A DNA stretch of 64,000 nucleotides from Candidatus Komeilibacteria bacterium (GTDB taxonomy: Bacteria > Patescibacteriota > Patescibacteriia > UBA1558). Shown in pieces: positions 12,866 through 40,996 of this stretch. Location of the stretch: contig JBLYPX010000001.1 of the NCBI GenBank assembly GCA_048538235.1, forward strand, positions 679,554 through 743,553, in the 5' to 3' direction. Within the stretch, counting starts at the first letter, position 1, and every line of letters begins with the position of its first letter. The notes below the pieces were generated by a model. The model was not told the origin of the DNA, made no database searches, and was given only the letters and a program-made list of their open reading frames with translations. Both the position numbers and the translations under genes were made by a program.

Positions 12866-12868
12866 TAT

Positions 12869-13204
12869 TTAAAACCTTTCTGGAATAAATTCTTTAACTT
12901 GGAATGGTTTTTCATTACCAATATCGTCATCTTTAACAACTGGCAAACCTACACCACCCTTCATTCTTTTATATATATCATACTCTGTAAAATTCATATC
13001 TAATGCTTTAATTACATCATCCACTTTTTTTGTTTTACGAACCTGCATAAAACCAGGAGACAATAAATCATTATCCAGTGTTTCATCATATTCTACTACT
13101 GCATTTTGACCTAATAACATATATGCCATTGCACCAAAACAGATGACTAGTATCACTATCATAATGGCATTTTTTTGTTTTGATGGTTTTTTCTTAGCTA
13201 GCAT
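12869..13204 (-). CDS. small membrane-anchored protein (possible PilP-like accessory protein)
   Basis: 111 aa with a single N-terminal TM. It sits between the pilO-like gene and pilB with overlapping or coupled boundaries. Confidence 0.35.
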   Translation of the reverse strand: MLAKKKPSKQKNAIMIVILVICFGAMAYMLLGQNAVVEYDETLDNDLLSPGFMQVRKTKKVDDVIKALDMNFTEYDIYKRMKGGVGLPVVKDDDIGNEKPFQVKEFIPERF

Positions 13205-13883: not shown

Positions 13884-13884
13884 A

Positions 13885-14742: not shown

Positions 14743-14744
14743 AA

Positions 14745-15881: not shown

Positions 15882-15898
15882 TTATTTTTGTTATATTT

Positions 15899-22792: not shown

Positions 22793-22826
22793 AAAAACAA
22801 CCACCTAATATTAGGTGGTTGTTTTG
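22793..22826. terminator. bidirectional rho-independent terminator between efp (+) and the convergent minus-strand gene
   Basis: AAACAACCACCTAA-TAT-TAGGTGGTTGTTTT gives a perfect 12-13 bp stem flanked by A/T runs on both sides. Confidence 0.65.
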
Positions 22827-22832
22827 TATATA

Positions 22833-23639
22833 TTATATTGCTAATTGCAAACTACTACCCAATGTCTGTAATTTATTCCAGTTAAACGAATTGTCCTTAG
22901 CATCTACATAGGCCATCAATATATATTTAGGCTTATCTTCGTCTAACATATTATCTATTATAGCCATAACCACCATAGCTGAATCTTCTTTAGACAACTT
23001 AAGCTTGTCTACTAAAACCATCTCTAAGGCTAAACTCAGCAAAGCTGGCGTAGGTTTTGCTTCTATCATGGTTTCTGCAATCTCATCTGTATATTTAACA
23101 GCTATATATTTTTTTAATATACCTTTAAACCTTGAATCTTGTTGCCATGTTTTTACTAACTCTCCCGTACGTGCCAACCAAGATAAAACAACAACAACTT
23201 CCTCTGCCTTGCCTAGTCCTAAACTTTTCCAAAGATAGTTTCTAATTCTTGATACATCGCCGCTAGAAATTCTTCCTAGTTCTTCCATAGACTTTGTTAA
23301 AGATTTTGGCTTAATAAAATCTTTCCAAATAGTATTCACTGGAACAGAAACACTTTCATCCTCTAATTCTTCTTCCTCTTCCTCAAAATCTTCGTCACCA
23401 TCTACATAAAATGGCTCGATAATATTTTCACTCAAGGCATCAATAAAATCGTTAGCTTTTTCTTCTTCAAAATTAAGATCTTCAATTAAAAAATCAACTG
23501 CTTCTTTATTACTTGCTTCGCCTTCTAAAATTGCCTGTGCTAATTCACCAGGAAAATAATTATATTTTAAAGCTAATAAATTCAAATCTCCTAGAACTTC
23601 TTTTCTATTTAAATATTCTTCTATTTCTTTATTCTTCAT
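22833..23639 (-). CDS. acidic hypothetical protein, translationally coupled to the upstream giant ORF
   Basis: 268 aa with an Asp/Glu-rich stretch (DGDEDFEEEEEELEDES). Its start overlaps the stop of ORF 23629..28722 by 11 nt. Confidence 0.5.
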   Translation of the reverse strand: MKNKEIEEYLNRKEVLGDLNLLALKYNYFPGELAQAILEGEASNKEAVDFLIEDLNFEEEKANDFIDALSENIIEPFYVDGDEDFEEEEEELEDESVSVPVNTIWKDFIKPKSLTKSMEELGRISSGDVSRIRNYLWKSLGLGKAEEVVVVLSWLARTGELVKTWQQDSRFKGILKKYIAVKYTDEIAETMIEAKPTPALLSLALEMVLVDKLKLSKEDSAMVVMAIIDNMLDEDKPKYILMAYVDAKDNSFNWNKLQTLGSSLQLAI

Positions 23640-26600
23640 CTTCTTGCTCGCTTGTATAATTAGAAACTATTTGTTCTATCTCATCGCCAGAAAGACCCTC
23701 TTCCTCTAAAATCACTTTCATATCTACATCCCCTCCACCGCTTGTATTAATATTACTAATCCTCTGATTAACATTAGCTATTTTATCTTGCATTTCATTG
23801 CTAAACGCTGCTTGACTAGCTCCCATCTTTTTAACTTGGGAAGATTGCTGTTCAAACCATTTCTTCATAGCCAAGAACTGTGCCATAGATAATGGTTTAC
23901 TTAAGAATGAACCACTACTTGTTTTGGGTATATTAATACCTCCCTTATTCGAGCTTTGCTTTGCTTTGCCAGCGTTAAGCATTCCTGGTGGTATATTGCT
24001 TAAAAATTGATCCATCTGTCCAGATATAACATTCATAGCCTCCTCGTCAGTACTGTTTGATGTATTATCTGTTTGTGCTAACAATTTTCTCAACTCTTCC
24101 AAAAACTTTTTATTATCTGGCTCGTTCTTTTCTTCTTCAGGTAAATTTATTTCTATTTCTTTTTCTAGAGCTTGTAAACTATTTTGTATCTGCTCTTTTG
24201 TACTATTCCTATCTGCTATCACTTTAGACAAATCACTAACCCTATCCTTAACTGAACTTTGAGTATCTCTGGCTGCTTGAGTGCTTCTAGTTGCTTCAGA
24301 GCTAGCAACAGACTCCTTCTCTGAATCTCTTGATGATGTTTGCTTGTCTTGGCCAGCACTTTCTGCCTTAGAAGTTGAAACTGTTTCTACAGATGAAGAT
24401 GATTCTCCTTGTACAGAACTTTGAGTATCTCTGGCTGCTTGAGTGCTTCTAGTTGCTTCAGAGCTAGCAACAGACTCCTTCTCTGAATCCCTTGAAGATG
24501 TTTGCTTGTCTTGGCCAGCACTTTCTGCCTTAGAAGTTGAAACTGTTTCTACAGATGAAGATGATTCTCCTTGTACAGAACTTTGAGTATCTCTGGCTTT
24601 TTCAGCACTGCTCATTGATTCTGAACTAGCCGTTGATCTATCTGAATCTCTTGATGATGTTTCTTTATTAGAACCAGCTTTCTCAGTATTTGTTGTTGAT
24701 CTGGACACCTCGTTTGCTCTAGCCCTTGCCTCTTCTGCTTTGGTTTTTTGCTTGCTAGCTAAAGATTCTAAACTCTTTATTTCTTTTTCATGTGATGTTT
24801 TATATTTCTGATTTTCTGTAGAAATCCTAGAAGCTTCTTTTCGTAAAGCATTTGCCTTCTTAGTAGCTTCATTATATCTATACATAGCTCCTTCTGGATT
24901 TACATAGTTTGGATCTTCATATTCCTTTTTAGCCTGGGCAGCATCTTTTTCATACGATTCCGCTCTACCAGTCAAGTCTTTAACCTTGCTATTATTATCA
25001 TTATAGCTCTTTGCAAATAAAGCTTTTGTAGCGTTTATTACATCTTGCGTTTTATAATAATCATCTTCTTTGGCTACAGCTTTATTCTCTTCAGACTGTC
25101 GCTTAATTTCTTCTTTATTCATAGCTTTGTTTACAACACTACTTTGGTAAACATCTAGAGCATCTTCATCTCTATCTGCATCATACCCCTGACCACCATT
25201 AACAATCATAAATTCTTCTTTTTGCTCATTGCTCATACTAGACCAATCATTTAAAGCTTGTTCCCTTAATCTTTCTTCCGTCTTCTGACGCTCTTGTTCT
25301 GAGTTAGCAGCTCTTATATTCTCTTTCCGCTCTTTTTTCATTGCCTTACGTTCTTTTCTTGATTCAAAGAAACTCTTCCCCTTTTCTACGCTTACACCAC
25401 CCTCACTGACTGTCATATCTTTTGCATTAATAATCCTATCTACAAAGGGTTGAGGAAGTTTAGGTTTAGATTTATCTATAACACCGTTCTTTCCAACATT
25501 GGCAATAGCGTCTGCCAAATATTCTTTTCTAATATCACCCTCAGTCATGTTTGGTTGATTTCTGTCTTCTCTAATATATTGACGGGCACTTTCTTTTTCA
25601 GCAACGGTCATACTATTCCACACATCTTCTTGAATAGAGCCATCCGAATCGACACCTTCAATGGTACTATGAGCTTTCTCATGACGAATTAACTGTTTGG
25701 CGTCTTTTCCTTTTCTTGATTTATTAACCAAAACCAAACCATCTGATTTTATTCTTTCTTCATCATTTAAATTGTTTAACAATTGATCAACACCACTAAC
25801 TCTTTCACCTGATTCAGTCTCAATTCCATGCAAGGTATCATTCTTTACTTGTTGTAAGTCTGCGTCTTTGCTTGGTTTTACGCCAAAATATTCTAAAGCT
25901 GTTCTGATATCTTCATCCTCCTCTGCTGATTCAAGCTCACTTTGATAAGCTTGCACCATTTCTTTCATAGCACTAGCTGCTTTAATAGCTTCTTCACCGT
26001 TAACAAACATACCAGCCTTTCTTTTCTGACCGGTTAAACCACCTTCTACTCTTTCATTCAGTTCATTGAAATCTACTGCTGTCATATTACCACTTCTAGC
26101 AAGCGATCCCATTGTAATACCTCCTTGAGTTGATTTACTTATTTTTGAATATTCTGAATATTGATCCTGATTTAAATATTCACTACTCTTTTCTTCCTCA
26201 CTTAAAGATTTATATTTGTCTGAGTTATAGAAACGCTCCCCTAAGACACTAGCATTATTTGCAACAAACTCATCCTTATTTACTTCTCTGGTTTCATCAC
26301 CCTTCTTAAGAACAACATTACTGTTTTCATTTCTACTAGTAGCTTCTTGATCAACCTGCCAATCTTTACCTTCTTCACTCATATCTGCTCTAACCATGTC
26401 TGTTGGCATAAGATTACTAATTTCATTTTCTACAGCTAAACCTGTATTTAAAATCTGATCGTCTGAAACTTGAGAATCTACCATATAATCTTTAGTGGAT
26501 TTCTTTACCTCTACATCACTAATCTTTTTAGGTTCTCCTTGAACACTTATACTTTCATTGGATAAATTTTGATCATAATATTTAGAGGCCTCGTTGCTTA

Positions 26601-28722
26601 CCTTTTCATCACTTAAATGTTTTAAGGCTTTGTACAAAGCGGCTCTTCTAGTCTCTGCCTTCTTCCTACCATCTGTACCAGGGTTTTGAGAATCTACTTT
26701 TTCATTAACTTGTTTAACTAATTTATCTACCTTATCATAAGGCATACTCTTAAACATTTCTTTAACAGCCTTACTCTTTATATCTCCCAAATTATCTTCA
26801 ACATCTCCAGCTTGAAATCTCTCTGGCTCATCTGCAAACACCCTACCCTTACGCTCAGCTAATCTCTTTTCTTTTATTTCTTTTTCAGCAGATTTATACA
26901 CCCTCTTAAGTGGATTAATAGAAGAAACTTCCTTCTTCTTATATTTTTCTTCTGCTCTAGTTGTTGCTTCGGACTTTTCTTTATTAATATATGCTTCTTT
27001 AAGCTTTGCACTACTTAAAGATTGATCGCTGTATAGATCTTCTCCCTCTTCAATATCATATTTAGTGCGCAATTCATTCTCAGCATTCGTTATAGCTCTA
27101 GCTTTATATGCATCTCTTGCCTCGTCTACAGTATTTACATCAAACTCTGTTATTAGTTCCTGCTTACGAGCATCATCAAAACCGTTCCATTCTGTACGTG
27201 CCTTATTCTTTGCCTGCTCAGTAACACTATCGTGTTCCTCTCTCATAAAAGACTCTCTAATGTCACCAGCTGCAACCTTACCAGAACCATCTCTAGCGGT
27301 ACCACCTTTATTCCATAACTTATTCGCACCCGCAGCATCTGCGTTAATAGCTTTAGAAATAGCTTCCCTTTTCGGAATCTCTGCTCTAGCAGCTAAAGCT
27401 GCATTAATATTATCTCCACCACCAAAAACTTTCTTTCTGATATTATCTGCTCTTTTATCTCTTGCTTTCTCTCTTCCTTTTAACTTATCTTCTGACCTAG
27501 CTGCCGCTAAATGTAATAATGACCCCTCTCTTGCTCCACCTTCTGTAGCGCCAACTCTTTTAGCATCCCACCTTAAAAGCGCTCCGCCCGTACCACCAGC
27601 CAACGCTTTTCCACCCGCTTTTAAACCTCTACCACCTGCCTTCATGCCAGACTTAATATATCCACCACCCTTCTTTATTCCTTTGTCAAAAACCTTGCCC
27701 ATTAGACCACCAGATTTACCTCCCATTTTTTGAGCCATCTGCATACCAACAACCAAAAGCATAATACCTAATAGGTAGTTAAGTAAAAATGGCGCTGAGG
27801 CTAATTGCCCACCAATAATACTATCGGGATTAACAGAACTTTCTTCAGCTGTAAAACGTCCACCAGTTTGTGACACAACAGACAATGTTAACCATAGGAA
27901 AAAAGCAATAGCCGGACCAACAATTAACTGCTCGCTAAACTGAGACCACCATTGTTTTGCCTGACCACCTAAACTTCCTGGTAAAGCTGAAGCTAAATAT
28001 GCAAAAGGAGACATTACAACTAATATCCATAGAATAACAATACGATAAGCAAGCATAGCAACAACAGCAACCAAAACCACTAACAATATTAACGAAATAA
28101 GTAGACCAAAAATCATGCCAAGGATAAGGGCAAAATTATCTTGCTCTATTTCTCCAGAGGCATCCATTGAACTTGCTAAGGATTTTAACTTATTCAAACC
28201 AAAAGCCTCTGTAAAACCAACAATAATAGAATCTCTAAAAGCAGCTACAAAAGTTAACATGATAACTTGAGAAACATCTATTAAAAATCCTGCTATTGTC
28301 TTTGAAAAGTTAATCAATATAGCCATAATAATAACTTTCCTCAAAAAGTTCTTATAACTATATGATTCAACACCTAAAACTGTACCAACAGAGATGATAA
28401 GTAATATGACTATAAAGAACATATTACATATATCTCTAACAAGCACCCAACCAGTTGTTACAGCAGCCGCTGAAGTAAATTCATTAAACTGAGCAATATT
28501 AATGAGAACGGATAACACTAAGGTTATAAGTGAGCCTATCAAACTCATCAATAAATCCAGTATCCAGGCAAATACATTAGTCATTGCATCAGCTATACCA
28601 GCTGCATGACTAATAAAAGGTACTAAAATAATTAAACTTAAAACGAAAACAACCAAGGCTAACCGTTTAGTCACCTTGGTGTTTGCAAACTTCTTTATTC
28701 TAAGAATTAGATTTTTAAGCAT
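23629..28722 (-). CDS. giant membrane protein: N-terminal polytopic TrbL/VirB6-like domain plus ~1350-aa K/E/S-rich repetitive extension
   Basis: 1697 aa. It has a signal-like N-terminus, six or more TM helices in the first ~340 aa, a Gly/Lys linker, a long charged coiled-coil-like region, an S/T/E-rich segment with a 54-aa tandem repeat, and an acidic C-terminus. The TrbL/VirB6 assignment is by topology and architecture only. Confidence 0.55.
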   Translation of the reverse strand: MLKNLILRIKKFANTKVTKRLALVVFVLSLIILVPFISHAAGIADAMTNVFAWILDLLMSLIGSLITLVLSVLINIAQFNEFTSAAAVTTGWVLVRDICNMFFIVILLIISVGTVLGVESYSYKNFLRKVIIMAILINFSKTIAGFLIDVSQVIMLTFVAAFRDSIIVGFTEAFGLNKLKSLASSMDASGEIEQDNFALILGMIFGLLISLILLVVLVAVVAMLAYRIVILWILVVMSPFAYLASALPGSLGGQAKQWWSQFSEQLIVGPAIAFFLWLTLSVVSQTGGRFTAEESSVNPDSIIGGQLASAPFLLNYLLGIMLLVVGMQMAQKMGGKSGGLMGKVFDKGIKKGGGYIKSGMKAGGRGLKAGGKALAGGTGGALLRWDAKRVGATEGGAREGSLLHLAAARSEDKLKGREKARDKRADNIRKKVFGGGDNINAALAARAEIPKREAISKAINADAAGANKLWNKGGTARDGSGKVAAGDIRESFMREEHDSVTEQAKNKARTEWNGFDDARKQELITEFDVNTVDEARDAYKARAITNAENELRTKYDIEEGEDLYSDQSLSSAKLKEAYINKEKSEATTRAEEKYKKKEVSSINPLKRVYKSAEKEIKEKRLAERKGRVFADEPERFQAGDVEDNLGDIKSKAVKEMFKSMPYDKVDKLVKQVNEKVDSQNPGTDGRKKAETRRAALYKALKHLSDEKVSNEASKYYDQNLSNESISVQGEPKKISDVEVKKSTKDYMVDSQVSDDQILNTGLAVENEISNLMPTDMVRADMSEEGKDWQVDQEATSRNENSNVVLKKGDETREVNKDEFVANNASVLGERFYNSDKYKSLSEEEKSSEYLNQDQYSEYSKISKSTQGGITMGSLARSGNMTAVDFNELNERVEGGLTGQKRKAGMFVNGEEAIKAASAMKEMVQAYQSELESAEEDEDIRTALEYFGVKPSKDADLQQVKNDTLHGIETESGERVSGVDQLLNNLNDEERIKSDGLVLVNKSRKGKDAKQLIRHEKAHSTIEGVDSDGSIQEDVWNSMTVAEKESARQYIREDRNQPNMTEGDIRKEYLADAIANVGKNGVIDKSKPKLPQPFVDRIINAKDMTVSEGGVSVEKGKSFFESRKERKAMKKERKENIRAANSEQERQKTEERLREQALNDWSSMSNEQKEEFMIVNGGQGYDADRDEDALDVYQSSVVNKAMNKEEIKRQSEENKAVAKEDDYYKTQDVINATKALFAKSYNDNNSKVKDLTGRAESYEKDAAQAKKEYEDPNYVNPEGAMYRYNEATKKANALRKEASRISTENQKYKTSHEKEIKSLESLASKQKTKAEEARARANEVSRSTTNTEKAGSNKETSSRDSDRSTASSESMSSAEKARDTQSSVQGESSSSVETVSTSKAESAGQDKQTSSRDSEKESVASSEATRSTQAARDTQSSVQGESSSSVETVSTSKAESAGQDKQTSSRDSEKESVASSEATRSTQAARDTQSSVKDRVSDLSKVIADRNSTKEQIQNSLQALEKEIEINLPEEEKNEPDNKKFLEELRKLLAQTDNTSNSTDEEAMNVISGQMDQFLSNIPPGMLNAGKAKQSSNKGGINIPKTSSGSFLSKPLSMAQFLAMKKWFEQQSSQVKKMGASQAAFSNEMQDKIANVNQRISNINTSGGGDVDMKVILEEEGLSGDEIEQIVSNYTSEQEDEE
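24257..24615. repeat. 162-bp direct tandem repeat (~2.2 copies) inside the giant ORF
   Basis: CTTTGAGTATCTCTGGCTGCTTGAGTGCTTCTAGTTGCTTCAGAGCTAGCAACAGACTCC... recurs at ~24257, ~24419 and (partially) ~24581. This encodes the 54-aa repeat ARDTQSSVQGESSSSVETVSTSKAESAGQDKQTSSRDSEKESVASSEATRSTQA. Confidence 0.85.
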
Positions 28723-28795
28723 TAAAAAATCTTAGTAATCTATCTTTATTATACTTAAAAAAAGAAATAAAATCAAGGAAAAACAATACCTAATA

Positions 28796-28906: not shown

Positions 28907-30139
28907 ATGAAGACTTTAAACTTATTAACTGCGTTAATGTTTGTATTTATTTCGATCGTACATGGTGACTGGATAAACATAACTAACCCAGACACTGATG
29001 ACGATGATTTAAACACAATGGTAAGAACGGAAAATGATATGTTTCACATGTTTGGAGAAGATGGTACATATATTAGGGGGATTAATTTCTCACTATCAAA
29101 TCAACCATCGCCGGCTGGACTTGAAACAGATTATTTTAAAGCTTTTGCCGTAAACAACACTATCTATATATGTGGGGAAGAAAATACTATCCTTAAATCT
29201 ATAGATAGTGGTAATAACTGGAATGTCCAGTTCCAAGGCAATGACGATGACTTATCATTTTATGCAATGAGCTTCTGGAGTGAAAACTCCGGCGTTGTAG
29301 GTGGAGACAATCTCACTATCATGCTTACAACCGACGGACAAACATACACAGAAGTGATGAGTAATCCAAACGGCGGATGCATAAAATACATTCATCAAGT
29401 ATCTTCTAATGTTTTCCTTGCTGGCGGTTGGGATTATGAGAACAATGGAATACTTTTCCGCTCTCAAGATAGGTGTGAAACGTGGAATACAGTAAATATC
29501 AATACAAGTGATGATGTTTTCCACATAACCAGTCTTGGCGAAACCGTATTAATTGCCACCAAAGGAAGCTCGCACTGTTTGAGAAGTGACGATGGAGGAG
29601 TTAGTTTTTACTACTTAAACACGCCAACAAACAACGGAGTGAACGGTTTCAAGATTATTTCCAATGATCTGATCTTTATGTACAAGGGCGTTGAGTTGTA
29701 TTCTTCAACCGACTCGTGTGCAACCTGGACGCTCGAACATGAAACCGATGACACGATTAGAGATATGTATGTTGACACAACAAACCATATTAGTTGGTTA
29801 ACTGGAAGAAATGGAATAGTTTCATACAATTCATCATTTCTAGTCTCTATCGACCCCATCAATCAACAAGTGCCAAATGGTTATGTGTTAAACCAGAATT
29901 ATCCAAATCCATTCAACCCAAACACGACAGTTGAGTATTCTATTCCTGCTGATGGAATGTGTACTCTTACGATATACGATTTCCGTGGCAAAGAAATCAA
30001 AACTGTTGTAAACGAATTCCAGTCTGCTGGAACTCATCGGGTTGCAATTGACGGTAGTAATCTACCTTCTGGCGCCTACATCTACAAGTTGCAATCCGGT
30101 GGAATTTCATTATCCCACAAAATGCTACTTGTAAAATAA
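28907..30139 (+). CDS. secreted BNR/Asp-box repeat protein with T9SS (Por) type-A C-terminal sorting domain
   Basis: 410 aa with a signal peptide and Asp-box repeats (SIDSGNNW, SQDRCETW, SDDGGVSF, STDSCATW). The C-terminus LNQNYPNPFNPNTTVEYSIPADGMCTLTIYDFRGKEIKTVVNEFQSAGTHRVAIDGSNLPSGAYIYKLQSGGISLSHKMLLVK is a textbook Por_Secre_tail. GC is noticeably above the window background. Confidence 0.85.
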   Translation: MKTLNLLTALMFVFISIVHGDWINITNPDTDDDDLNTMVRTENDMFHMFGEDGTYIRGINFSLSNQPSPAGLETDYFKAFAVNNTIYICGEENTILKSIDSGNNWNVQFQGNDDDLSFYAMSFWSENSGVVGGDNLTIMLTTDGQTYTEVMSNPNGGCIKYIHQVSSNVFLAGGWDYENNGILFRSQDRCETWNTVNINTSDDVFHITSLGETVLIATKGSSHCLRSDDGGVSFYYLNTPTNNGVNGFKIISNDLIFMYKGVELYSSTDSCATWTLEHETDDTIRDMYVDTTNHISWLTGRNGIVSYNSSFLVSIDPINQQVPNGYVLNQNYPNPFNPNTTVEYSIPADGMCTLTIYDFRGKEIKTVVNEFQSAGTHRVAIDGSNLPSGAYIYKLQSGGISLSHKMLLVK

Positions 30140-31633: not shown

Positions 31634-34600
31634 TTAAGGAATTAATATAATTTCGCCATCATATCCTTCCCACCCAATAATTGCCTCAAAAATACCATCT
31701 CCATTTGTATCAACACCACAGTTACTACCACTTCCTTTACTACAAAAACCCCAATTATCCTCTACGTACACCTTTGGTGTATACACACAAGCTGGTTTAC
31801 CATCGACTTCCGTAGGCGGATTGCTACAAATATATGTGTGATTAAAACTAAAATAACCTATACCATTCTCGTAGTCATCCACACAATAATTAAGATCATT
31901 ACCGATGTTTTTTGGAACACACAAATTATTAGTTCCTGTACACTCAGCATTACTTCTACAACCCTGTCTTAACTTAAGGTTCTTTATTTGATAGCTTTGA
32001 TCAGAAGATAAACCTGGCGTATGATTCAACCTGCCAACCCCCAAATCCCTCAAACAATTACCACTTGTATTATTATCATTATAACAACTCGTTACCATTT
32101 CCTCTGGTATAGTTACTGTGCTACTGTAATGACACCAACCATCTTCTAAAGTTTCTGTACCATCTGGACAACCGGAATTAGTATTTGGTATGTAACTCAC
32201 ACCATTCACAACATTACTCAAAGAAGTTGTATCTGCGAATGGTAAATAAGGATAGCTTTCAGTCTGGCCGGGTAACAACAAGTTAGATTGAGAACAATAT
32301 CCGGTTGAATAACACCAATAATTAGCCATTGATCTTGTCGCAGTAATATTGTTACTTATTTTAAAATCATATTCTAGGGTTACAACATCTCCGGCTGTAA
32401 ATTTTTCATCTGCTATCTCTGTGTTTCTATATATTACCCAATTGTCATCCCTGCTCGATGTTTGTGTAATAGTAGTTATACCAGTTGACGTATTTTCCGT
32501 CGCAGTACCACCCCAAGATGTGGTTGGATTAAAATCATTCCAATAATTATCATCTGAAATTGAGTTGGTACAACTGTTAACACATATATTTTTGTGATTT
32601 TTCAAGCTAACAGTTTCATCATTCTCTCCAAAAATCGACGAACCATCATCCCAATCCACCATCAATCTACTTAATGGTAATTGATCACCAGTCTCATTAT
32701 ATGCATAAAACTTAACTGTTGCGTTATAGATATTCGATTCCATAAGAATGTTACCACTATTTTTATCGTTAATAGTTATCCCTGTATTTCCCTCCGAAAC
32801 TACACCGTTTGAATCTAATTCAACTTGACGTAGATCTACATTATCGCCAGAACTAATAGTAGAAATCTCACTAAATGATGCTTGTTCATATCTGTCTTGA
32901 CCATAATCCCAAGAAAATTTTTCTATAAGCCTTGCAAACAAATTCTTTAACCATTGCAATCCATTGTTATCACCTCCATTAAAATTTGAATTTATTGCCG
33001 AAACCAAATCTTGATCTTCACTATCAACTCCATAATAATGACCATCTATATTTGAAGACCCGTCTAACATACCTATAACACCTGATTGAGAAACTGAATA
33101 TGGTGTACCGGCAACTACCCCACTCAAACTAGTATTCTCATTTTCGACCTGTATAAACTGGTTATAATTATTCAAATTAAAATCTACGTTACTCATTCCA
33201 TACCAGCTATAATATTGGTCTATGTCTAAAGATATTTCATTGTCATCAACATCTTTAAATGTGGCCATACCATTTATAAAATTATTAAACTTAGGCGAGC
33301 CTACCCGAATAAAATCAGTACATATTTCTGTTGCAGAAGTGTCTGGTTGTAGATAGTTTACCGTAACGTTGTATATATAACCCTGAACTATATTATAATA
33401 ACCATCCATATACTCAAGCGGATTAATAAAAGAAACTTCATAACGAGACACGTTATCTACTCCATCAAAATCACCATCTTGAAAACCAACAATAAAAAAT
33501 GCATACATAGCATACTCATTCCAGTTATTGCAATTCGCATAACCACCAGCAAATTCATTAGCAGACAAACATCCATCCTCTCCATCTAAAAACGGGAAGA
33601 CACCCCCATTATTTCTTGTAAAATTATGCCAAATAAAAGATTCATCATCAAATGTTATGCCCGGGTTGCCGCCAACACTATCTATCGTGTAAAATGCCTT
33701 AACCCATATCTTTGAATCCTCTGGACCGCAAAAATCTTCATTAATATTACCACCAACGCAACTATATTCATCTTCACTCGTTAGCGTAATAGTGCTTGAA
33801 CCATTTATATTAAGTAACATACACTCATCTGGATCGTTACCATAAATATCATCTTGACACTTTAAAACACCATCCGTTCCTATACCATTAACAAAATAAT
33901 CGTCATGCCCTGGTATCTGCCAACCAGCCGCAACATTGTTGAATTCAATACTCTCAATGACTGATTCTTCTTTACCAAAACTATCTTCATCCCATATTTC
34001 AACATCTTGATTACTAACACCTACTGAAACATTAGGATACTGCTGACCACCATTCATGCATAAAGCTATTGTAGAATTGTCTTGAAAACCAGCATATGGT
34101 GAAACAATCTCAGGAGTTCTTGCGTAATAATCTTCCATCCAATAATAACCACAATGTTGCCAATCCCATACATAGCTCTCATTTTCTGGCGCCTGCTCAC
34201 CAAGATCTAACGAAACTGGAATAGACACGTCCCCTGCATAAGGATAATTACCTTCTGACTGTAAACAATAGTACATATTATCAAAATCCAAATTTAGGTC
34301 ATCAGCTATATTGACACCAGATGGGTTATATTCACCACTTAAAATATCTAATGGCATCCAAGTTAAACAAGGGTGTGTGCTGCCGGCATATCCAATTATC
34401 GTTCTTGAATAATCATATTCAAGACAGAAGCCCCAAAAACCGCGATAATTATTAACTGATTTAATTTGAGAATCGCCAATAGCAGTAAATCCATTATAAT
34501 TAGATCTATAATACCTAGTCTCACCTTGTGTGTAATTAACCTCTGTATAATCACACTCACAACCAGCGCCCTGAGAGCAGAAATTCGCTTGAGGCATCTG

Positions 34601-37600
34601 CAAAGGCTTGGTAATAATATTTCCATCATCATCAAACTCAATATTTAACCCTATTGTCGAAAAAGGAGCATCAGAATCAGGGAACAACCTACACGTTGGT
34701 TCAACAGTTATTCCATTAAAACCTACACCCGCTGTATCGTCACTTTCGTTGGACAACCTCAATACACCATCTTTATTTTTAGCCAACAAAGATTCTAAAT
34801 TAAACTTATTCAACAATGAGTAACCAGAATATTCTTGTCCTGACCAACCAGTTTCTCTGGCCGTATATACATCCTCAGTTAATATTTCATCACCTTTTTC
34901 TAACCAAGAAATACAAGTATTACCACTAGGAGATAACTCCGTACACCTGCCAAGGTCATAACAATACTCTTTCACACTTCCATCTATTTCTGTGGCATAA
35001 CTTGAAGATCTACAAGCTAGCCATTCGCTACACTCTCTATTTTTAGTTACTTTAATAACTTCATTACTATCACTTAAACAATCATCATCCTCTGGGGAGC
35101 ATCCTGTAACAACTGTTAAATTACCATTGTTTACTAAACTGTTATTATAGCTAGCATTACTGTCATATTGTCTTATTATCTCTCCATCACTATCTACATT
35201 AGATGTATCCAACATTAATACACAACCGCTTTCCCAAGAAACCTGTCCATTACAATCTGCACCATTTATACTGTTGCCGTTTATATAATAATATGACTGC
35301 GTCTCACTAATACCAACATTATCTAGATAGAATGTAGAATTGGTATCATTACCGAAAGCTATTGAACACCTTATGTTGTTATTACTTGAATCTGCTCTAA
35401 ATTTACCTGTAAAAGTTGAATATCTATCTGTTCTTGTTTGGGAACTTTTAATTAACATTTTATACACTCCACCACCCACACCTATAAATGAATCGTCATA
35501 TGATTCTATAGTAGCTCCTTCACAATATAGACCAACCGAATAACTACCAATACCCGTTGTACCAGCTAATGCATGAGCTACATTTATAAATCTTGGCAAA
35601 TTAAACGACATATCTTCTGCCTCCTCCTCACTTGGAGGTTGTTGGTCTCCACTAATAAATCTTAGATCAAACTTAACAGTATAATCTTTACCGCCATTTA
35701 TTGAGAAACTCTGTCTAAATGATTCATTACTACTTGGAGTATAATAATCTACATTTACAGCATTTGTATTATCCCTTCCTGATCCATTAAGATATGAAGT
35801 AAAGCCGTCACAGCTAGTATTATCTTCACACCAAAAATCTGGTATCTCTGGATCGTTATTTACATTTCCTAATTTCGTGTTTATTTCAAAATCTCCATTA
35901 AACAGCAAATTATCTCCTTGTGTTCCTTGAGGATCTATAAACTCTGTACAACCAACCGCAGCAGAATTACATTCTCCAGCAAACCCTATCCAATCAACAT
36001 CTCTTCTCTTATATAATTCACCGCTTTCATTACATGGTATTTTGTCTGCTTGGTTAGCATTATTAACGGATGATGTTAAATACCAACCAGTTAATTTCTG
36101 ACCATTAGACTCATAATTATCTAAGAAGGTACAAGTTCTTTCTCCTGGGTCTCTCATATACACAGTCTGTCCATCTGATTGATAAGCTTCACAATTTAAA
36201 GCATCCGTACCACAAAGCGTTAAATCATATCTTTCAGGATCATTTATTAAATATATATCTTCCCAAGAATCTATAACATTTGCATTATTATTATCAACTG
36301 CAAATTGAGGAGCACCCAAAACAGTACAACCCTTATCTCTACTACTGCAATAATATTGATTATCATCTACCAAATAAATTAATTCGTCTGCCTCTGTAGT
36401 TATATTTTGATCATCTGTATCCCAAGTCTGCGCACCAATTGCTTTAGTGTTTTTTGTATCAATAAACATTGAACAGCCAACAGATGATTCAGAGCACAAA
36501 CTATTGAAGCTGCTCAAATAATGAGTATTGCCTAATCTATCCTCATATTCATCACAACCCAAATCCTCAACAGTACATTGATCTGGTGTATTCCAAGAAT
36601 CTTTAACTAAATATAGATCTGAGTTGATTTCTTTCAAGACTATATTATCTATATAGTAATATGAATTATTTGCTGGGAAGTTCAAATTAAAACTAAGTAT
36701 ATTATTGGATGACGTGTCATCAAAATATACTGGACCTAGATTATACTGTTTCCATACACTCCTAACATCTAAACTGAAACTTGGGGCAAATAAATAATCA
36801 TTATCATTATTAAAGGATATCTGTGCTTGTGTTCTGGCTGCAGTACTAGCCTTTAACCAGAAAGATAATGTATATGATTTACCAGAACGAATACTTACAT
36901 TCTTTGAAAGAATTGTTTCACTATTAGCTTTGTATGAATGCCCACCTGTTACAACAGATTCTGAACTTAATGAGCCACCTGTCCAACCATGTGTTCCGGC
37001 CTCAAAATCATCGACAAACAATCTTCTGACATTACTACCATCACTACCCTTATATACTTTACAACCAACAGCCTCTGCTGAACACGAACCCGATTCAGAA
37101 GTTAAAACTAATGCCATATCTGCACTATCTATTGCTCTTCTTAACTGAACACAGCTATTACTTGCTTTAACAACACTGCTTTCTCTTACTAAATATTCAT
37201 CGTTATTCTCATCAACAAACCAACGACAGGCAGGATCATCTTCTTCTACACAAGTGTCTACACCATTAACTGTATCGTTACAAACATTAGTTGTTCCATT
37301 ATACATAACACTAGTACAAGGACCGTCGTTAATATCACTCTTTAATAAACTCCAAGATCTTAATTCAAAACCAGTTGTTTCAGATCCTTCCCAGGTATAA
37401 TATGTTGTAACGTCTGGGTCTGTATCTGGAACACACATTCTTAAAGAATTATAATACTCAACAGTTTCACCAGCTGTCATATTAGTAAAGGCTTCACAAC
37501 CAACCTCTTCTAAACTACAACTCTGAGCTGTGTCAGCAATGAAACTATCGTAAGTTATGATATCATCTGCGCCAAACCACCTATCTATTTCTGTATTTTC

Positions 37601-40258
37601 CTGTAAATATTGTTCATAACCACTACATTCAGATGAACAATAGTCACGACTACTCACTATTCCCGGTATTGATGGATCGCCATTAGTTGGAATGTATAAT
37701 TCACAACCAAGTTCATCTGCTTCACAACTTGGAGCATAATTATCACAAGCAGGAACCCAATTATTTTCACAATCTAAATAATCTGGAGCTTTTTTAATAT
37801 AGCTAATATTCTTAGATCCATAATTTACATAATTATTTGCCCTAGATCCAACTTCTAATTGAATATTATCAAACCACAAAGACCCTCCACTACTTGTCAA
37901 AACTCTGACTCTTGCTGAAGCAACTTTATCATTTGTAAAAAATGTACAACTACTCCTTTCCATATTTCTACTAACTGGAGTAAATTGTAAATCTACATTT
38001 TGTGGGTGTCCGCCAACACCAATAGAACAATCTCCCGCACCAATAGCAAAGGCTTGGCTATTATCACCACAATTTTTATTATTATCACATAGTTGCACTA
38101 TTACTCTAGCAGCAACCTCTTCACTGTTTGAAATTTGAGCGGCTGAAGCAGAAATAGTATATTGAGCATTTGGAGCTACTTTTACATTTGACTGAGCAAC
38201 ATTCCAGTTATAACTTTGTTTTATCTTACCATCTGAATATTCATCAGCTGTTCCCCAATTGTCTGGTTGAGCGCCGTCTGTGCTTTGACTAAAATCACCA
38301 TTATAAACCAAGTTAACACCTGGCTCTATTTTTATTAATTCTGAACAACCAGCATTCTGTCCCTCACAAGTACCGGCTTGAGCATTTAATCTTATCTGAG
38401 AATTTTCATCCCATATAGTTTCATTATCTCCATATGAAGAAACGGTTGTACTATACCAACGACAACCAACTTCATCTGCTGTACAGAAATCTAATGTATC
38501 TTTAATATAATAATCTGTTCCCTGATCGCTAGTATAAGAACGGCAAGAAGCATAAGCAGACAAACATTGCTCACCACCAAACTGCCATACATTTTTTTCA
38601 CGCGTACAATAACCCCACGCACCAGGTAAACACTCGCCATTACCATCTGTTTTTAAGCAAGTTTGAGCATCAACACAGATCTCACTTCTGTTTGTACTAC
38701 TTGGTGTTTCTAGAACAGGTCCATAACCACTAGCCCTACATTGAGCAGCTGGTGCTACTAATATCCAATCTGGGTCAATTAAACTTTCATAATCACTCCC
38801 AGAAACATTAAACTGGGCAATAACCTCACCTAGAGTTACTGGGCTATCTACTGGACTCTTTGATGCAGCTATTTCCCAACCCAAAGGTATAAATCTAGCC
38901 AGTCTCATCTTTTGTAAATTAGAATAACACAAAGCATCTTTGTGACAGTACTGTAAGTCACTATGTAGATGACTGTCTTTAGATATTAAAGGCGTATTAG
39001 CATCTATCAGTCTTAATTGAATTGCCTCTGCTACTGTAATTGGTTCATTCTTACTAAATGCAGAATAAAACTTTGGATCCATTACGCAATTATTCAAATT
39101 ACGAATATTTTCATCAGGACATATAACAAAATCATTAGCTGGATCATATTGTTCGATACTACTAGGTGAGACCGCAAACGCCTCTGAATAATATTTCTCT
39201 ATAGTTTGCGTATTTACAGGGTTTGCATATGGATTAACATTTAAATTCAAATCACTATTATCTGTACCGGGTGTTGAAGTGGCATAGGGAGTGCCAAATA
39301 AAAAATTATTAAGATTGAAATTTTTATATGTATTTATATCATACAAACCATTAATAAGATTTTCTAAAAATGTAGATGTTAGCGTGTTAGTAAATGTCGC
39401 TGCAGCACGAGCTAAAACAGGATGTTCAGAATTGGCAGCAACCTGCAATTTAAGACCTTGGAATTGTAAACCCATATTAGCCGGAGCTTGAGCAGCGCTC
39501 TGAACATCCTCAGCACCACTTTTCACCTGAGTTTTAGTAGTATTAAGCACTGGCCTATAGGTACTCTTTAAAGTTTGTATTATTTCATCCCTTTCTTGAG
39601 TTTCTTTTTTAGCTATTAACTTATCATTTAAAGATAGTTGGGCTGAAAAATCACTCTTACCTGGTCTAAATTGAATTTGTAGTCCTTCTACTAAAGCGGC
39701 CTGAGCTGCATCTCGCTCTGCTTGAGTACAACCTTCACCGAACAAACATGCCTGTTCTGCAACAAAAGACTCCCAGTTTCTGACAATGTTTGCCAAATCA
39801 CACCTAGGCTGTATTATTTGATCGTTCTTCAATAAAGACATTGTAATAGTAGCCTTTATATCTAAATCTGGATTACAAAGATCAATTCCTAGGTCTGACC
39901 ATTCATCACTTAAACCACCAATAAAATCACCAGCTGCTGCCCCTGCTGCATCTTTAAGAATGTTTTGAAAGACTCTTCCTTCAAATAACGTTCCTTGCCC
40001 CCTATCACCAGTGGCTAGTGAAACAGCTGTTTCGTAAGCAAATTTCTGCAAAAACATATCTGATGCATCTATAACCAATTGCTTAACTGTTAGTGTAACA
40101 AAATTTTTAACAACGTCTTTAATTTTCTGCCACGTAAATTCTATAACAGTGGCCGCATCAAAGGTCGGTAAAGCGTATGCTTGTTGCGGAGCTAGTGCAG
40201 CGCCAAAAATAGTAGTTAAAAAGCACACCGTTAAGATAATTGTTGTTATTTTACTCAT
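31634..40258 (-). CDS. giant (2874 aa) secreted Cys/Asn/Gly/Tyr-rich surface protein of unknown function
   Basis: It has a signal peptide (MSKITTIILTVCFLTTIFGAALAPQQAYA) and one uninterrupted 8.6 kb frame with no TM segments after the signal. It contains many Cys pairs. It is co-transcribed with the upstream 243-aa protein (6-nt gap). Confidence 0.7.
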   Translation of the reverse strand: MSKITTIILTVCFLTTIFGAALAPQQAYALPTFDAATVIEFTWQKIKDVVKNFVTLTVKQLVIDASDMFLQKFAYETAVSLATGDRGQGTLFEGRVFQNILKDAAGAAAGDFIGGLSDEWSDLGIDLCNPDLDIKATITMSLLKNDQIIQPRCDLANIVRNWESFVAEQACLFGEGCTQAERDAAQAALVEGLQIQFRPGKSDFSAQLSLNDKLIAKKETQERDEIIQTLKSTYRPVLNTTKTQVKSGAEDVQSAAQAPANMGLQFQGLKLQVAANSEHPVLARAAATFTNTLTSTFLENLINGLYDINTYKNFNLNNFLFGTPYATSTPGTDNSDLNLNVNPYANPVNTQTIEKYYSEAFAVSPSSIEQYDPANDFVICPDENIRNLNNCVMDPKFYSAFSKNEPITVAEAIQLRLIDANTPLISKDSHLHSDLQYCHKDALCYSNLQKMRLARFIPLGWEIAASKSPVDSPVTLGEVIAQFNVSGSDYESLIDPDWILVAPAAQCRASGYGPVLETPSSTNRSEICVDAQTCLKTDGNGECLPGAWGYCTREKNVWQFGGEQCLSAYASCRSYTSDQGTDYYIKDTLDFCTADEVGCRWYSTTVSSYGDNETIWDENSQIRLNAQAGTCEGQNAGCSELIKIEPGVNLVYNGDFSQSTDGAQPDNWGTADEYSDGKIKQSYNWNVAQSNVKVAPNAQYTISASAAQISNSEEVAARVIVQLCDNNKNCGDNSQAFAIGAGDCSIGVGGHPQNVDLQFTPVSRNMERSSCTFFTNDKVASARVRVLTSSGGSLWFDNIQLEVGSRANNYVNYGSKNISYIKKAPDYLDCENNWVPACDNYAPSCEADELGCELYIPTNGDPSIPGIVSSRDYCSSECSGYEQYLQENTEIDRWFGADDIITYDSFIADTAQSCSLEEVGCEAFTNMTAGETVEYYNSLRMCVPDTDPDVTTYYTWEGSETTGFELRSWSLLKSDINDGPCTSVMYNGTTNVCNDTVNGVDTCVEEDDPACRWFVDENNDEYLVRESSVVKASNSCVQLRRAIDSADMALVLTSESGSCSAEAVGCKVYKGSDGSNVRRLFVDDFEAGTHGWTGGSLSSESVVTGGHSYKANSETILSKNVSIRSGKSYTLSFWLKASTAARTQAQISFNNDNDYLFAPSFSLDVRSVWKQYNLGPVYFDDTSSNNILSFNLNFPANNSYYYIDNIVLKEINSDLYLVKDSWNTPDQCTVEDLGCDEYEDRLGNTHYLSSFNSLCSESSVGCSMFIDTKNTKAIGAQTWDTDDQNITTEADELIYLVDDNQYYCSSRDKGCTVLGAPQFAVDNNNANVIDSWEDIYLINDPERYDLTLCGTDALNCEAYQSDGQTVYMRDPGERTCTFLDNYESNGQKLTGWYLTSSVNNANQADKIPCNESGELYKRRDVDWIGFAGECNSAAVGCTEFIDPQGTQGDNLLFNGDFEINTKLGNVNNDPEIPDFWCEDNTSCDGFTSYLNGSGRDNTNAVNVDYYTPSSNESFRQSFSINGGKDYTVKFDLRFISGDQQPPSEEEAEDMSFNLPRFINVAHALAGTTGIGSYSVGLYCEGATIESYDDSFIGVGGGVYKMLIKSSQTRTDRYSTFTGKFRADSSNNNIRCSIAFGNDTNSTFYLDNVGISETQSYYYINGNSINGADCNGQVSWESGCVLMLDTSNVDSDGEIIRQYDSNASYNNSLVNNGNLTVVTGCSPEDDDCLSDSNEVIKVTKNRECSEWLACRSSSYATEIDGSVKEYCYDLGRCTELSPSGNTCISWLEKGDEILTEDVYTARETGWSGQEYSGYSLLNKFNLESLLAKNKDGVLRLSNESDDTAGVGFNGITVEPTCRLFPDSDAPFSTIGLNIEFDDDGNIITKPLQMPQANFCSQGAGCECDYTEVNYTQGETRYYRSNYNGFTAIGDSQIKSVNNYRGFWGFCLEYDYSRTIIGYAGSTHPCLTWMPLDILSGEYNPSGVNIADDLNLDFDNMYYCLQSEGNYPYAGDVSIPVSLDLGEQAPENESYVWDWQHCGYYWMEDYYARTPEIVSPYAGFQDNSTIALCMNGGQQYPNVSVGVSNQDVEIWDEDSFGKEESVIESIEFNNVAAGWQIPGHDDYFVNGIGTDGVLKCQDDIYGNDPDECMLLNINGSSTITLTSEDEYSCVGGNINEDFCGPEDSKIWVKAFYTIDSVGGNPGITFDDESFIWHNFTRNNGGVFPFLDGEDGCLSANEFAGGYANCNNWNEYAMYAFFIVGFQDGDFDGVDNVSRYEVSFINPLEYMDGYYNIVQGYIYNVTVNYLQPDTSATEICTDFIRVGSPKFNNFINGMATFKDVDDNEISLDIDQYYSWYGMSNVDFNLNNYNQFIQVENENTSLSGVVAGTPYSVSQSGVIGMLDGSSNIDGHYYGVDSEDQDLVSAINSNFNGGDNNGLQWLKNLFARLIEKFSWDYGQDRYEQASFSEISTISSGDNVDLRQVELDSNGVVSEGNTGITINDKNSGNILMESNIYNATVKFYAYNETGDQLPLSRLMVDWDDGSSIFGENDETVSLKNHKNICVNSCTNSISDDNYWNDFNPTTSWGGTATENTSTGITTITQTSSRDDNWVIYRNTEIADEKFTAGDVVTLEYDFKISNNITATRSMANYWCYSTGYCSQSNLLLPGQTESYPYLPFADTTSLSNVVNGVSYIPNTNSGCPDGTETLEDGWCHYSSTVTIPEEMVTSCYNDNNTSGNCLRDLGVGRLNHTPGLSSDQSYQIKNLKLRQGCRSNAECTGTNNLCVPKNIGNDLNYCVDDYENGIGYFSFNHTYICSNPPTEVDGKPACVYTPKVYVEDNWGFCSKGSGSNCGVDTNGDGIFEAIIGWEGYDGEIILIP

Positions 40259-40264: not shown

Positions 40265-40996
40265 TTAATAAGATATTTGATTTTCATTTAAAGCCTCCTC
40301 ATACATTACCATCAAGTCCTCGTCTGAAATTACTGCTAATTCTTCTTCTGATATTCCAGAATTAAGTAGCATAGCCCTTACCTCCTCAACAGACACATTA
40401 TAAAGTCCACTCGCTGCGTCAGTCGCACCTTGTCCTGACAAAACTAAAGTGGTTTGCTCGTAAAGCTCAACCATATCCTGTGTAGACAAAACATTAATTT
40501 CACTTTCTGGATAACCTAATTTAACAAGTTCTGTGATTAAACCTTCTTTTCCACCATATGATTCAATGGTCATGTCTAAATCCGTTGGAATTTGATCAAA
40601 TAAATTAGTATTACAGCCGTCTGGATTACTGCATAATGGATCTGCACCAGAAACAACCTCTATTCTATCTCCTAAACCATCTGAATCTGTATCTTCAATG
40701 TATGCAGATGTTCCATAAACATACAATTCTAAATAATCTGACAAACCATCCCCATCTGAATCCATTTTTTTTAACTCTTCTGCGTCTTGAAGATCAACCT
40801 GATCACTCTTTTCCACCTCAACATTAGCAAATCTAGCCATGCCAATTTTAAAAGGCTCCTTAATATTACTTTGAGCCTGGTAAAACGAAAAACTAAAGAC
40901 TAATAAAGCTACAGCTAGAACGCCTAAATAGTAGTACGGACTTTCTGTATTAATCTTTAAAACTTTCTTTAGTTTTTCTAGTAAATTATTAAACAT
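40265..40996 (-). CDS. membrane-anchored protein with a dockerin-like pair of EF-hand Ca-binding loops
   Basis: 243 aa with an N-terminal TM (YYYLGVLAVALLVFSFSFY). It has two 12-residue DxDxDGxxDxxE loops (DSDGDGLSDYLE and DTDSDGLGDRIE) spaced 23 residues apart. Each is followed by a hydrophobic helix, as in type-I dockerin F-hand duplications. Confidence 0.55.
   Translation of the reverse strand: MFNNLLEKLKKVLKINTESPYYYLGVLAVALLVFSFSFYQAQSNIKEPFKIGMARFANVEVEKSDQVDLQDAEELKKMDSDGDGLSDYLELYVYGTSAYIEDTDSDGLGDRIEVVSGADPLCSNPDGCNTNLFDQIPTDLDMTIESYGGKEGLITELVKLGYPESEINVLSTQDMVELYEQTTLVLSGQGATDAASGLYNVSVEEVRAMLLNSGISEEELAVISDEDLMVMYEEALNENQISY

Follow-up and report, generated by a model that had tools for sequence, protein, structure and literature searches.

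What does a VirB6-like membrane protein of 1697 amino acids (aa) do in a stretch of DNA that carries no other recognisable gene of a type IV secretion system (T4SS)? This question is raised by a 64,000-nt piece of the genome of a Candidatus Komeilibacteria bacterium (assembly GCA_048538235.1, contig JBLYPX010000001.1, positions 679,554 to 743,553), which is called the window in the following and whose own numbering is used throughout. The host is a member of the Patescibacteria (class ABY1). On the reverse strand of the window the gene of the large protein is directly followed by the gene of a 268-aa acidic protein, its putative partner. We consider it clearly probable that the large protein is a VirB6-type subunit of the Patescibacteria T4SS, equipped with a cytoplasmic, partner-binding and possibly zinc-dependent tail, and that its ATPase partners are encoded elsewhere. 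The gene pair comprises the following features:

23629..28722, reverse strand: whole open reading frame (ORF) of the 1697-aa extended VirB6-like protein (ORF list)
27718..28722, reverse strand: polytopic membrane domain with VirB6 fold, residues 1-335 (motifs GWxxVRDxCNMFF and LINFSKTIxGxxIDxSQV, R227, S238-P239 and W258 conserved)
27538..27717, reverse strand: Gly/Lys-rich linker directly after the last transmembrane (TM) helix, residues 336-395, with 27 Gly and 15 Lys+Arg per 100 aa (translation)
25438..26490, reverse strand: conserved tail domain with a zincin-like signature, residues ~745-1095 (iterated hidden Markov model (HMM), alignment of homologs)
25669..25683, reverse strand: HEKAH, an HExxH motif formed by H1014, E1015 and H1018 (translation)
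25510..25524, reverse strand: EYLAD with the invariant E1067, a candidate third zinc ligand (ExxxD) 49 residues past H1018 (translation)
24254..24598, reverse strand: 162-nt (54-aa) tandem repeat rich in Ser, Thr and Glu, 2.1 copies, 98% identical (Tandem Repeats Finder, composition)
23629..23639, reverse strand: overlap of 11 nt between the stop of the large ORF and the partner start (ATGAAGAATAA; sequence)
22833..23639, reverse strand: 268-aa acidic partner without signal peptide or TM segment (ORF list, composition, hydropathy)
22872..23309, reverse strand: conserved C-terminal domain of the partner, residues 111-256 (iterated HMM)
28748..28776, reverse strand: promoter-like site TTGATT-17-TATAAT, 5' of the VirB6-like ATG (consensus scan with 10/12 matches; a consensus match only)
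22794..22825, both strands: bidirectional hairpin terminator with a 14-bp stem, between the partner gene and the convergent efp (terminator scan)

Both ORFs had been reported in an earlier note on this DNA, which also saw the partner gene overlap the large ORF's stop codon and took this as a sign of translational coupling. The ORF list confirms the two ORFs and the sequence confirms the overlap, with the partner ATG lying 11 nt within the 3' end of the 1697-aa ORF (...GAAG-ATGAAGAATAA). In relatives the distance between the two genes is 2-12 nt. Bracketed by the promoter-like site and the hairpin terminator, the two genes form a bicistronic unit of their own. Pfam (on all ORFs of at least 150 aa) and phmmer (with PrgI, TrsD and VirB4 queries from the candidate phyla radiation (CPR), on all ORFs of at least 50 aa) found no VirB4, VirD4, VirB3, TrsD or relaxase in the window, and inspection of ORFs in its intergenic gaps revealed no VirB2-like small membrane protein. 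This agrees with the earlier note, which had missed VirB4, VirD4, VirB2 and a relaxase.

Though divergent, the N-terminal domain is a true homolog of VirB6; formally it stays under the Pfam threshold. Four lines of evidence carry this identification: family-level matches to TrbL, profile-profile comparison, fold and synteny. Hydropathy places 8-9 hydrophobic segments, and so at least five hydrophobic helices, within residues 15-331 and none beyond, in keeping with the signal-like segment and the six or more TM helices described before for the N-terminal ~340 aa. The domain has 32 homologs in the database (25-51% identity), all from Patescibacteria and several with a precomputed TrbL-type Pfam domain. 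Among 33 family members five match the TrbL/VirB6 profile PF04610 (best E 5e-5, profile positions 27-208 of 215), while a separate Pfam scan of full-length homologs yielded 3/32 matches. We compared the CPR family profile by hhalign with a profile of six canonical proteins (TrwI of R388, VirB6 of pTiC58 and four other plasmid VirB6). The two aligned over 128 columns with Prob 81.3% and E 1.2e-5, such that CPR S238-P239 fell on canonical G180-P181 and W258 on W199, each being invariant in its own family. An AlphaFold (AF2) model of the membrane domain contains seven long helices at a predicted local distance difference test score (pLDDT) of 84. Its best natural match in the PDB is TrwI/VirB6, the only natural protein family that reached a Foldseek prob of 1.0. 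The VirB6/TrbL-like character proposed in the earlier note is thus supported by hhalign, by Foldseek and by the synteny with PrgI, TrsD and VirB4 in relatives, to which we now turn.

A scan of species-representative genomes returned at least 499 relatives, from which 80 loci were kept; overall 85 family ORFs in 85 loci were examined. All loci come from metagenome-assembled genomes of Patescibacteria, mostly of the class ABY1 (Komeili-, Falkow-, Uhr- and Kerfeldbacteria), and every locus holds a single VirB6-like ORF (85/85) without tandem paralogs. Downstream of it, among the 53 loci with at least 7.5 kb of flank, lie genes of PrgI/VirB3-like (44/53), TraC-like/TrsD-like (43/53) and VirB4-like proteins (41/53). 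In most loci this trio lies ~5-6 kb from the start of the VirB6-like gene, its order PrgI-TrsD-VirB4 being fixed. For the locus L001 the downstream genes gave Pfam matches to PrgI, TraC-like, DUF87 and AAA_10, and the VirB4-like proteins of the loci score ~1000 bits against each other. The VirB6-like gene is thus encoded together with VirB4 in the orthologous loci, though not in the window.

Some records of the family deserve a comment. Many of them, those of L003, L004, L006, L009 and L010 included, bear the title 'uncultured Gammaproteobacteria bacterium', also 'Binatia' or 'Planctomycetota', and seem mislabelled. The 917-kb genome of L001 (GCA_964214775.1, OZ173682.1; 7648-12667) appears to contain genes in fragments: an Asp/Asn-tRNA synthetase split into three, a 406-aa VirB6-like gene followed by ORFs of 266 and 184 aa, and a giant homolog (see below) in pieces, which could reflect long-read frameshift errors or real decay. 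The database entries P0001-P0032 are mostly partial (200-600 aa), from short contigs that end inside or just past the membrane domain. Repetitive, low-complexity tails may break metagenome assemblies, so that the length of the family is under-recorded.

Upstream of the VirB6-like gene two further genes of the window recur in relatives:

31634..40258, reverse strand: 2874-aa secreted, Cys-rich, acidic giant protein, conserved 5' neighbour of the VirB6-like gene (homologs in 45/56 loci)
40265..40996, reverse strand: 243-aa protein with a single TM segment (residues 20-42) and a bacterial TSP3 repeat (thrombospondin type 3, Ca-binding; Pfam TSP3_bac; homologs upstream of the giant in 21 loci)

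The count for the giant refers to 56 loci with enough flank. Upstream ksgA is present as well, in ten loci. Of the 39 loci with both flanks, 23 have the giant and VirB4, eight only the giant, eight only VirB4 and none neither. The giant possesses a signal peptide, 97 Cys (3.4%), a strongly acidic composition and no other TM segment; the window copy has no Pfam match. Its homologs measure 2000-3200 aa (E down to 3.5e-164) and are conserved only in the N-terminal ~1400 aa, and those of L082 and L084 match CBM_4_9. The giant may be an extracellular arm of the T4SS locus, and the 243-aa protein, since it is conserved upstream of the giant in 21 loci, probably belongs to the same locus. The earlier note had described the VirB6-like gene as being without other T4SS genes. 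The window indeed holds no canonical T4SS gene, but the VirB6-like gene is hardly isolated, since the 2874-aa and 243-aa genes share a conserved locus with it in relatives. From the conservation on both sides the ancestral gene order can be reconstructed as ksgA, 243-aa gene, giant, VirB6-like gene, partner or other genes, PrgI, TrsD and VirB4.

Where, then, are the ATPases of the window's lineage? The loci L002, L082, L084 and L085 show the same arrangement as the window, at partner identities of 42-61%; the assemblies of L082 and L084 are GCA_041294365.1 and GCA_030154545.1. They share the order giant (2926-2994 aa), opposite-strand BNR/Por_Secre_tail gene, VirB6-like gene (1480-1807 aa), partner, convergent efp-rpsR-ssb-rpsF, HtpX, LemA and type IV pilus (T4P) genes. 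The lineage has retained the front half of the ancestral locus (243-aa gene, giant, VirB6-like gene and partner), and the convergent efp-rpsR-ssb-rpsF operon has taken the place of the ATPase module. In this split lineage the BNR/Por_Secre_tail gene was inserted on the opposite strand; in the window it is duplicated. As the arrangement is found in relatives down to 42% partner identity, the separation from the ATPase module is old and stable in the clade. In a neighbour-joining tree of the N-domain, VirB4-linked and unlinked loci interleave, and the window clade has the VirB4-linked L053 as its sister, together with L070, the flank of which is too short to show linkage. This interleaving indicates that the window gene is an ortholog of the cluster-embedded VirB6 rather than a separate paralog, and that the separation occurred several times. 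A pseudogene or decaying remnant was ruled out, for the ORF is intact, L002, L082 and L084 preserve the architecture at 1480-1807 aa, and none of the family invariants is missing. Since Komeilibacteria assemblies are VirB4-positive in Table S1 of a recent T4SS survey (PMC12102498), the VirB4/ATPase module is likely to be located elsewhere in the source genome.

Behind the 335-aa core extends a hydrophilic tail of ~1350-1360 aa. After the linker it is a polyampholyte with 35-45% charged residues, and it includes a stretch rich in Ser and Thr (residues 1301-1500, 36-38% Ser+Thr) within which the 54-aa tandem repeat lies. The linker, the charged tail and the repeat, all named in the earlier note, were found again by translation, composition and Tandem Repeats Finder. 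The note had further likened the giant extension to the extended VirB6 proteins of symbionts. The likeness holds, but such a tail is no exception here: family ORFs are 406-1807 aa long with a median of 912 aa (complete ORFs, n=75), which makes a long tail the family norm.

The side of the membrane on which the tail resides was judged from the charges of the loops. The following numbers of Lys+Arg and Asp+Glu per loop are averages over 82 family sequences, in the residue numbering of the window protein:

N-terminus: Lys+Arg 5.1, Asp+Glu 0.5
Residues 39-50: Lys+Arg 0.3, Asp+Glu 1.5
Residues 117-129: Lys+Arg 3.5, Asp+Glu 1.1
Residues 168-196: Lys+Arg 1.3, Asp+Glu 3.2
Residues 247-265: Lys+Arg 2.1, Asp+Glu 1.1
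Residues 286-310: Lys+Arg 1.8, Asp+Glu 4.6
About 47 aa past the last TM helix: Lys+Arg 7.0, Asp+Glu 1.7

In the tally of these charges, models with an even number of passes, in which both termini are inside, comply with the positive-inside rule much better than every odd-pass model. Together with the lack of a signal peptide in the partner, the fusion of the partner domain to the tail end in one relative (see below) and the absence of Cys from the tail (0, vs 97 in the secreted giant), this makes it probable that the tail lies in the cytoplasm.

Within the tail the HExxH motif had been regarded as perhaps fortuitous. This doubt is removed by its conservation: among the columns of the tail only H1014, E1015, H1018 and E1067 are invariant across all 32 full-length homologs aligned, which are 19-50% identical to the window protein at a mean column identity of 15%. 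Moreover, HExxH occurs in 12 of 82 family tails where 0.61 are expected from composition, and those 12 have the flanking context in common. Further positions conserved to at least 75%, among them D749, T760, G868, G904, N1000, R1003 and W1035, outline a domain of ~350 aa, and a conserved hydrophobic L-x-L-x-N segment precedes HExxH. At the level of phmmer only the L002 tail matches the window tail (E 2e-44, 30% identity over residues 640-1089), and HExxH is kept within the matching block (LIRHEKAHSTIEG vs IIRHEEAHQMIET). With an iterated HMM the module was found in 14 ORFs, all of them family members. A word-indexed database search for the HExxH module returned nothing; HMMER, run exhaustively on 1.84 billion cluster representatives, gave 36 proteins, nearly all of 1000-2300 aa and with the module at ~800-1200. 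L053 has lost the first His and, along with it, the +4 acid of the Glu motif.

In gluzincins the zinc site is laid out as a hydrophobic segment followed by HExxH and then by ExxxD/E. The spacing from HExxH to the Glu covers a range that includes 49 and is, for example, about 45 in anthrax lethal factor. The tail domain resembles these thermolysin-like enzymes in its invariant HExxH after L-x-L-x-N and in the invariant Glu (ExxxD/E) 49 residues on. It differs from them in that neither Pfam nor PDB sequences match it to any peptidase family, the site being a predicted one, and in that it is embedded in a membrane subunit of a secretion system. A search of the domain profile against the PDB yielded only matches to MutS2 coiled coils, which were judged noise, and the zincin-like (ArdC-type) protein of R388 showed no similarity (Prob 0.6%).

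The second gene of the pair encodes a protein that is acidic (54 Asp+Glu vs 31 Lys+Arg), as the earlier note had stressed, and that has no hydrophobic segment. Its full-length homologs (P0033-P0041, 42-100% identity) are always encoded directly downstream of the VirB6-like gene and are confined to a Komeilibacteria-like clade. The C-terminal domain of ~150 aa reaches further: according to an iterated HMM it is present in the gene immediately 3' of the VirB6-like gene at 12 loci, including proteins of ~370-480 aa at L003, L017, L039, L050, L052, L065, L070, L071, L073 and L078. Some of the loci with such a gene carry VirB4 farther downstream. In L059 the partner domain forms the last ~130 residues (1378-1508) of a 1509-aa VirB6-like protein, i.e. 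a natural fusion, which is encoded at 946-5475 of Candidatus Uhrbacteria MGEP01000048.1 and is followed by PrgI-, TrsD- and VirB4-like genes. This fusion and the conserved spacing of 2-12 nt or overlap link the VirB6-like protein and the partner functionally. Members of the partner family have no signal peptide, and at most one or two contain marginal hydrophobic stretches. The 266-aa gene downstream in L001 was considered as a partner homolog and turned out not to be homologous.

Several results weigh against the proposed assignment and bear on the alternatives to it. Neither PF04610, the check suggested by the earlier note, nor NCBIfam TrbL matches the window protein, be it at full length or as N-domain alone, even at E≤10. 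Relatives match PF04610 only below the gathering score (≤19.5 bits vs a cut-off of 25.9; E 8.7e-4), and a search of PDB sequences with the family profile gave noise and no VirB6 chain. In addition, the hhalign alignment is limited to the C-terminal half of the domain and, at 81% probability, is of moderate strength. The N-domain might on these grounds be an unrelated polytopic helical protein that resembles VirB6 merely as a generic helical bundle of hydrophobic composition. We regard this as very improbable, given that several members cover the TrbL profile almost end to end, that the invariant Pro and Trp are superimposed in the hhalign comparison, that no other natural family reached the same Foldseek score and that the synteny with VirB3, TrsD and VirB4 homologs is tight. 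For the tail, Pfam and NCBIfam yielded no meaningful match with the window protein, 32 full-length and 18 domain sequences matched no peptidase family in Pfam, and the profile search of the PDB brought up no relative; the motif is conserved, and a zinc peptidase is predicted from it. For the partner AF2 gave a poor model (pLDDT 57.6; ~72-88 is reached only by the helices in residues 1-80). The number of membrane passes also differs between the seven long model helices and the 8-9 hydrophobic segments, so that the side of the tail rests on the charge bias and on the partner argument. If each of the seven helices crosses once from a cytoplasmic start, the C-terminus ends up outside, and the tail would be a surface stalk of Ser/Thr/Glu-rich repeats by which a zinc protease or an adhesin is presented to the host cell. 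Fast-evolving tandem repeats rich in Ser and Thr are a typical trait of surface proteins, the products of neighbouring genes are secreted (the giant and the BNR/Por_Secre_tail proteins), the same idea has been proposed for surface-exposed extensions of Rickettsiales VirB6 paralogs, and extended VirB6 proteins with an unresolved role are known (PMC12857230, PMC7648143). This placement is nevertheless rather unlikely. The segment past the last TM helix is the most Lys/Arg-rich part of the domain throughout the family (7.0 vs 1.7 Asp+Glu), and every odd-pass model breaks the positive-inside rule at most loops. The partner family, without a signal peptide, has its domain fused to the tail end in L059, and the tail is free of the cysteines in which the secreted giant abounds. 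The C-terminus of canonical VirB6 is cytoplasmic.

A different objection concerns the system as a whole. The VirB6-like gene has no VirB4 over the 23 kb downstream or the 35 kb upstream of it that the window covers. The protein might therefore no longer be part of a T4SS in this lineage and might form, with the giant, the 243-aa TSP3 protein and the partner, an independent envelope module that, for example, anchors or exports the giant. Such a module would explain why the front half was kept without the ATPases, with VirB4, TrsD and PrgI absent from all 64 kb and the split stable across L002, L082 and L084. It would also suit the eight of 39 two-flank loci that have a giant and no nearby VirB4, and the adjacency of giant and VirB6, which is as well conserved (45/56) as that of VirB6 and VirB4 (41/53). 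Against it stand the interleaved tree and the retained N-domain invariants, which give no sign of a functional shift, and the joint occurrence of giant, VirB6-like gene and VirB4 in 23 of the 39 loci. Dispersed T4SS genes are, moreover, common: 176 of 480 Patescibacteria VirB6 homologues lie away from virB4, the genes of Rickettsia are scattered, and Komeilibacteria assemblies are VirB4-positive (PMC12102498). Overall we hold the loss of the T4SS role to be improbable, and a VirB6-type T4SS subunit with a cytoplasmic tail remains the preferred reading.

How does this subunit compare with known systems? The T4SS of Patescibacteria is related to the MPF-FATA type and to the conjugation machinery of monoderm bacteria; it consists of VirB4, TrsD, PrgI/VirB3, VirB6 and VirB2-like pilins, usually without a relaxase (PMC12102498). 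In the same survey VirB6 was found in only a fraction of the virB4-positive genomes, and 304 of the 480 detected homologues were near virB4. With the VirB6 of this system (Quinonero-Coronel et al. 2025, PMC12102498; Wang et al. 2023, PMC10633639) our protein shares the phylum, the VirB6-like/PrgI/TrsD/VirB4 order of the orthologous loci and its status as a conserved chromosomal gene without a relaxase or coupling protein nearby (none in the window by Pfam); that about a third of the homologues lie off virB4 is a further likeness. It differs in that it escapes the standard VirB6/TrbL HMM and in that the ATPase module is not adjacent. TrwI/VirB6 of R388 and the Ti-plasmid VirB6 of A. tumefaciens (MPF-T; PDB 7o3v, 8rtd) are alike in the polytopic helical domain, for which they are the best natural structural match, in the superimposed (G/S)-P and Trp, and in being encoded with VirB3/VirB4, as in the orthologous loci. 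The window protein differs from them by an identity of only 14-18%, an extra N-terminal signal-anchor helix and 1350 extra C-terminal residues (the canonical proteins have 295-342 aa), and its system by a monoderm host and the lack of VirB5, VirB7, VirB9 and VirB10.

Proteins termed 'extended VirB6', whose large hydrophilic C-proximal domains have no known function, form an established class (PMC12857230), in which VirB6-4 of Anaplasma reaches up to 4322 aa (PMC7648143). Like these Rickettsiales proteins (PMC7648143, PMC12857230), the window protein combines a VirB6 core with a very large, hydrophilic, repeat-bearing C-proximal extension in a host-dependent bacterium with a reduced genome and dispersed T4SS genes. 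On the other hand, its extension shows no detectable sequence similarity to theirs, it occurs in a single copy per locus instead of tandem paralog arrays, and it belongs to a monoderm organism and has a zincin-like domain that is conserved as well as a partner protein of its own. The 2025 survey (PMC12102498) does not mention giant neighbours, VirB6 extensions, an HExxH...E domain or the partner domain, and a literature search for VirB6 with HExxH or a metalloprotease found no such fusion.

The remaining genes of the window (Pfam, ORFs of at least 150 aa) are, in coordinate order, a complete T4P cluster, LemA, HtpX and rpsF-ssb-rpsR-efp up to the VirB6-like/partner pair; beyond it follow the two opposite-strand BNR/Por_Secre_tail genes, the 2874-aa ORF and the 243-aa TSP3-repeat protein and, at the far end, ksgA, major facilitator superfamily (MFS) transporters, leuS, an M23/LysM peptidase, gyrA, S1, FtsH, a second PilB-like ATPase and valS. 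The T4P cluster (4370-19042, reverse strand) comprises pilins, PilD, PilC, PilT, PilB, PilM and two ORFs of 487 and 559 aa without a Pfam match; it adjoins the VirB6-like pair also in L082 and L084. The second PilB-like ATPase (57367-59058, forward strand) lies 38 kb from it. The two secreted BNR/Sortilin-like paralogs (28907-30139 and 30334-31560, forward strand) are 39% identical and end in a Por_Secre_tail, a sorting signal of the type IX secretion system (T9SS). L082 and L084 have one copy in the corresponding position, and in L001, too, a Por_Secre_tail gene is near the VirB6-like gene. A monoderm Patescibacteria genome should have no T9SS, and the Por_Secre_tail may serve another purpose here, e.g. 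surface anchoring. A protein combining LysM and Peptidase_M23 is encoded at 47740-49041 (forward strand), without evidence here for a link to the T4SS; the VirB1-like cell-wall hydrolases of Patescibacteria show the same combination according to the 2025 survey (PMC12102498). The valyl-tRNA synthetase (1044 aa; 60536-63670, reverse strand) has a complete histidine-phosphatase domain (His_Phos_1) inserted at residues 438-626, between the halves of its catalytic domain. Finally, the ksgA ORF (41063-42019, reverse strand), listed with a TTG start, overlaps the upstream MFS gene (41911-43077, reverse strand) by 109 nt. Its Pfam match begins only at residue 60, such that the true start is probably farther downstream.

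From these observations a mechanism can be proposed. The N-domain would oligomerise in the cytoplasmic membrane and provide the translocon platform, working with VirB3, TrsD and VirB4 encoded elsewhere. The ~1350-residue cytoplasmic tail, composed of the Gly/Lys linker, polyampholyte spacers, the ~350-aa gluzincin-type HExxH...E domain, fast-evolving Ser/Thr/Glu repeats and a C-terminal region, would dock the acidic cytoplasmic partner, the ratio of the two being fixed by translational coupling. Tail and partner together might then serve as a cytoplasmic platform for the recruitment or processing of the moved cargo, with the giant Cys-rich protein as the extracellular, host-facing part. A more far-reaching version, which we put forward tentatively and think less probable than not, is that the HExxH...E domain is an active zinc peptidase which, with the partner, selects, cleaves or unfolds cargo or processes the tail at the mouth of the translocon, and that the ABY1 giant is an extracellular arm contacting the host. 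If true, the T4SS of Patescibacteria would gain two system-specific parts that had not been recognised before, and an enzymatic step built into the machine, such as is known from no T4SS.

The Patescibacteria T4SS is essential for the epibiotic growth of Southlakia epibionticum, again without a relaxase (PMC10633639, PMC12102498); no other T4SS is known to be indispensable for its owner's growth, and the role of the Patescibacteria system has been called completely unknown (PMC11665869, PMC12857230). The system as such is known, and the family-wide long tail, the zincin-like domain, the partner domain, the linkage to the giant and the repeated dispersal of the locus are features not described in the literature searched. 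A large VirB6 family of ABY1, with members in at least 499 species-level genomes, is missed by the standard HMMs and is long-tailed as a rule. It includes a subfamily with an invariant zinc-site signature and has a partner domain of its own, which in some cases is fused to the tail, and a secreted protein of ~2900 aa is linked to this VirB6 as tightly as VirB4 is. The T4SS genes of these tiny genomes can thus be stably dispersed, and the system gains testable handles: residues predicted to be catalytic, candidates for interaction partners and a protein that may contact the host.

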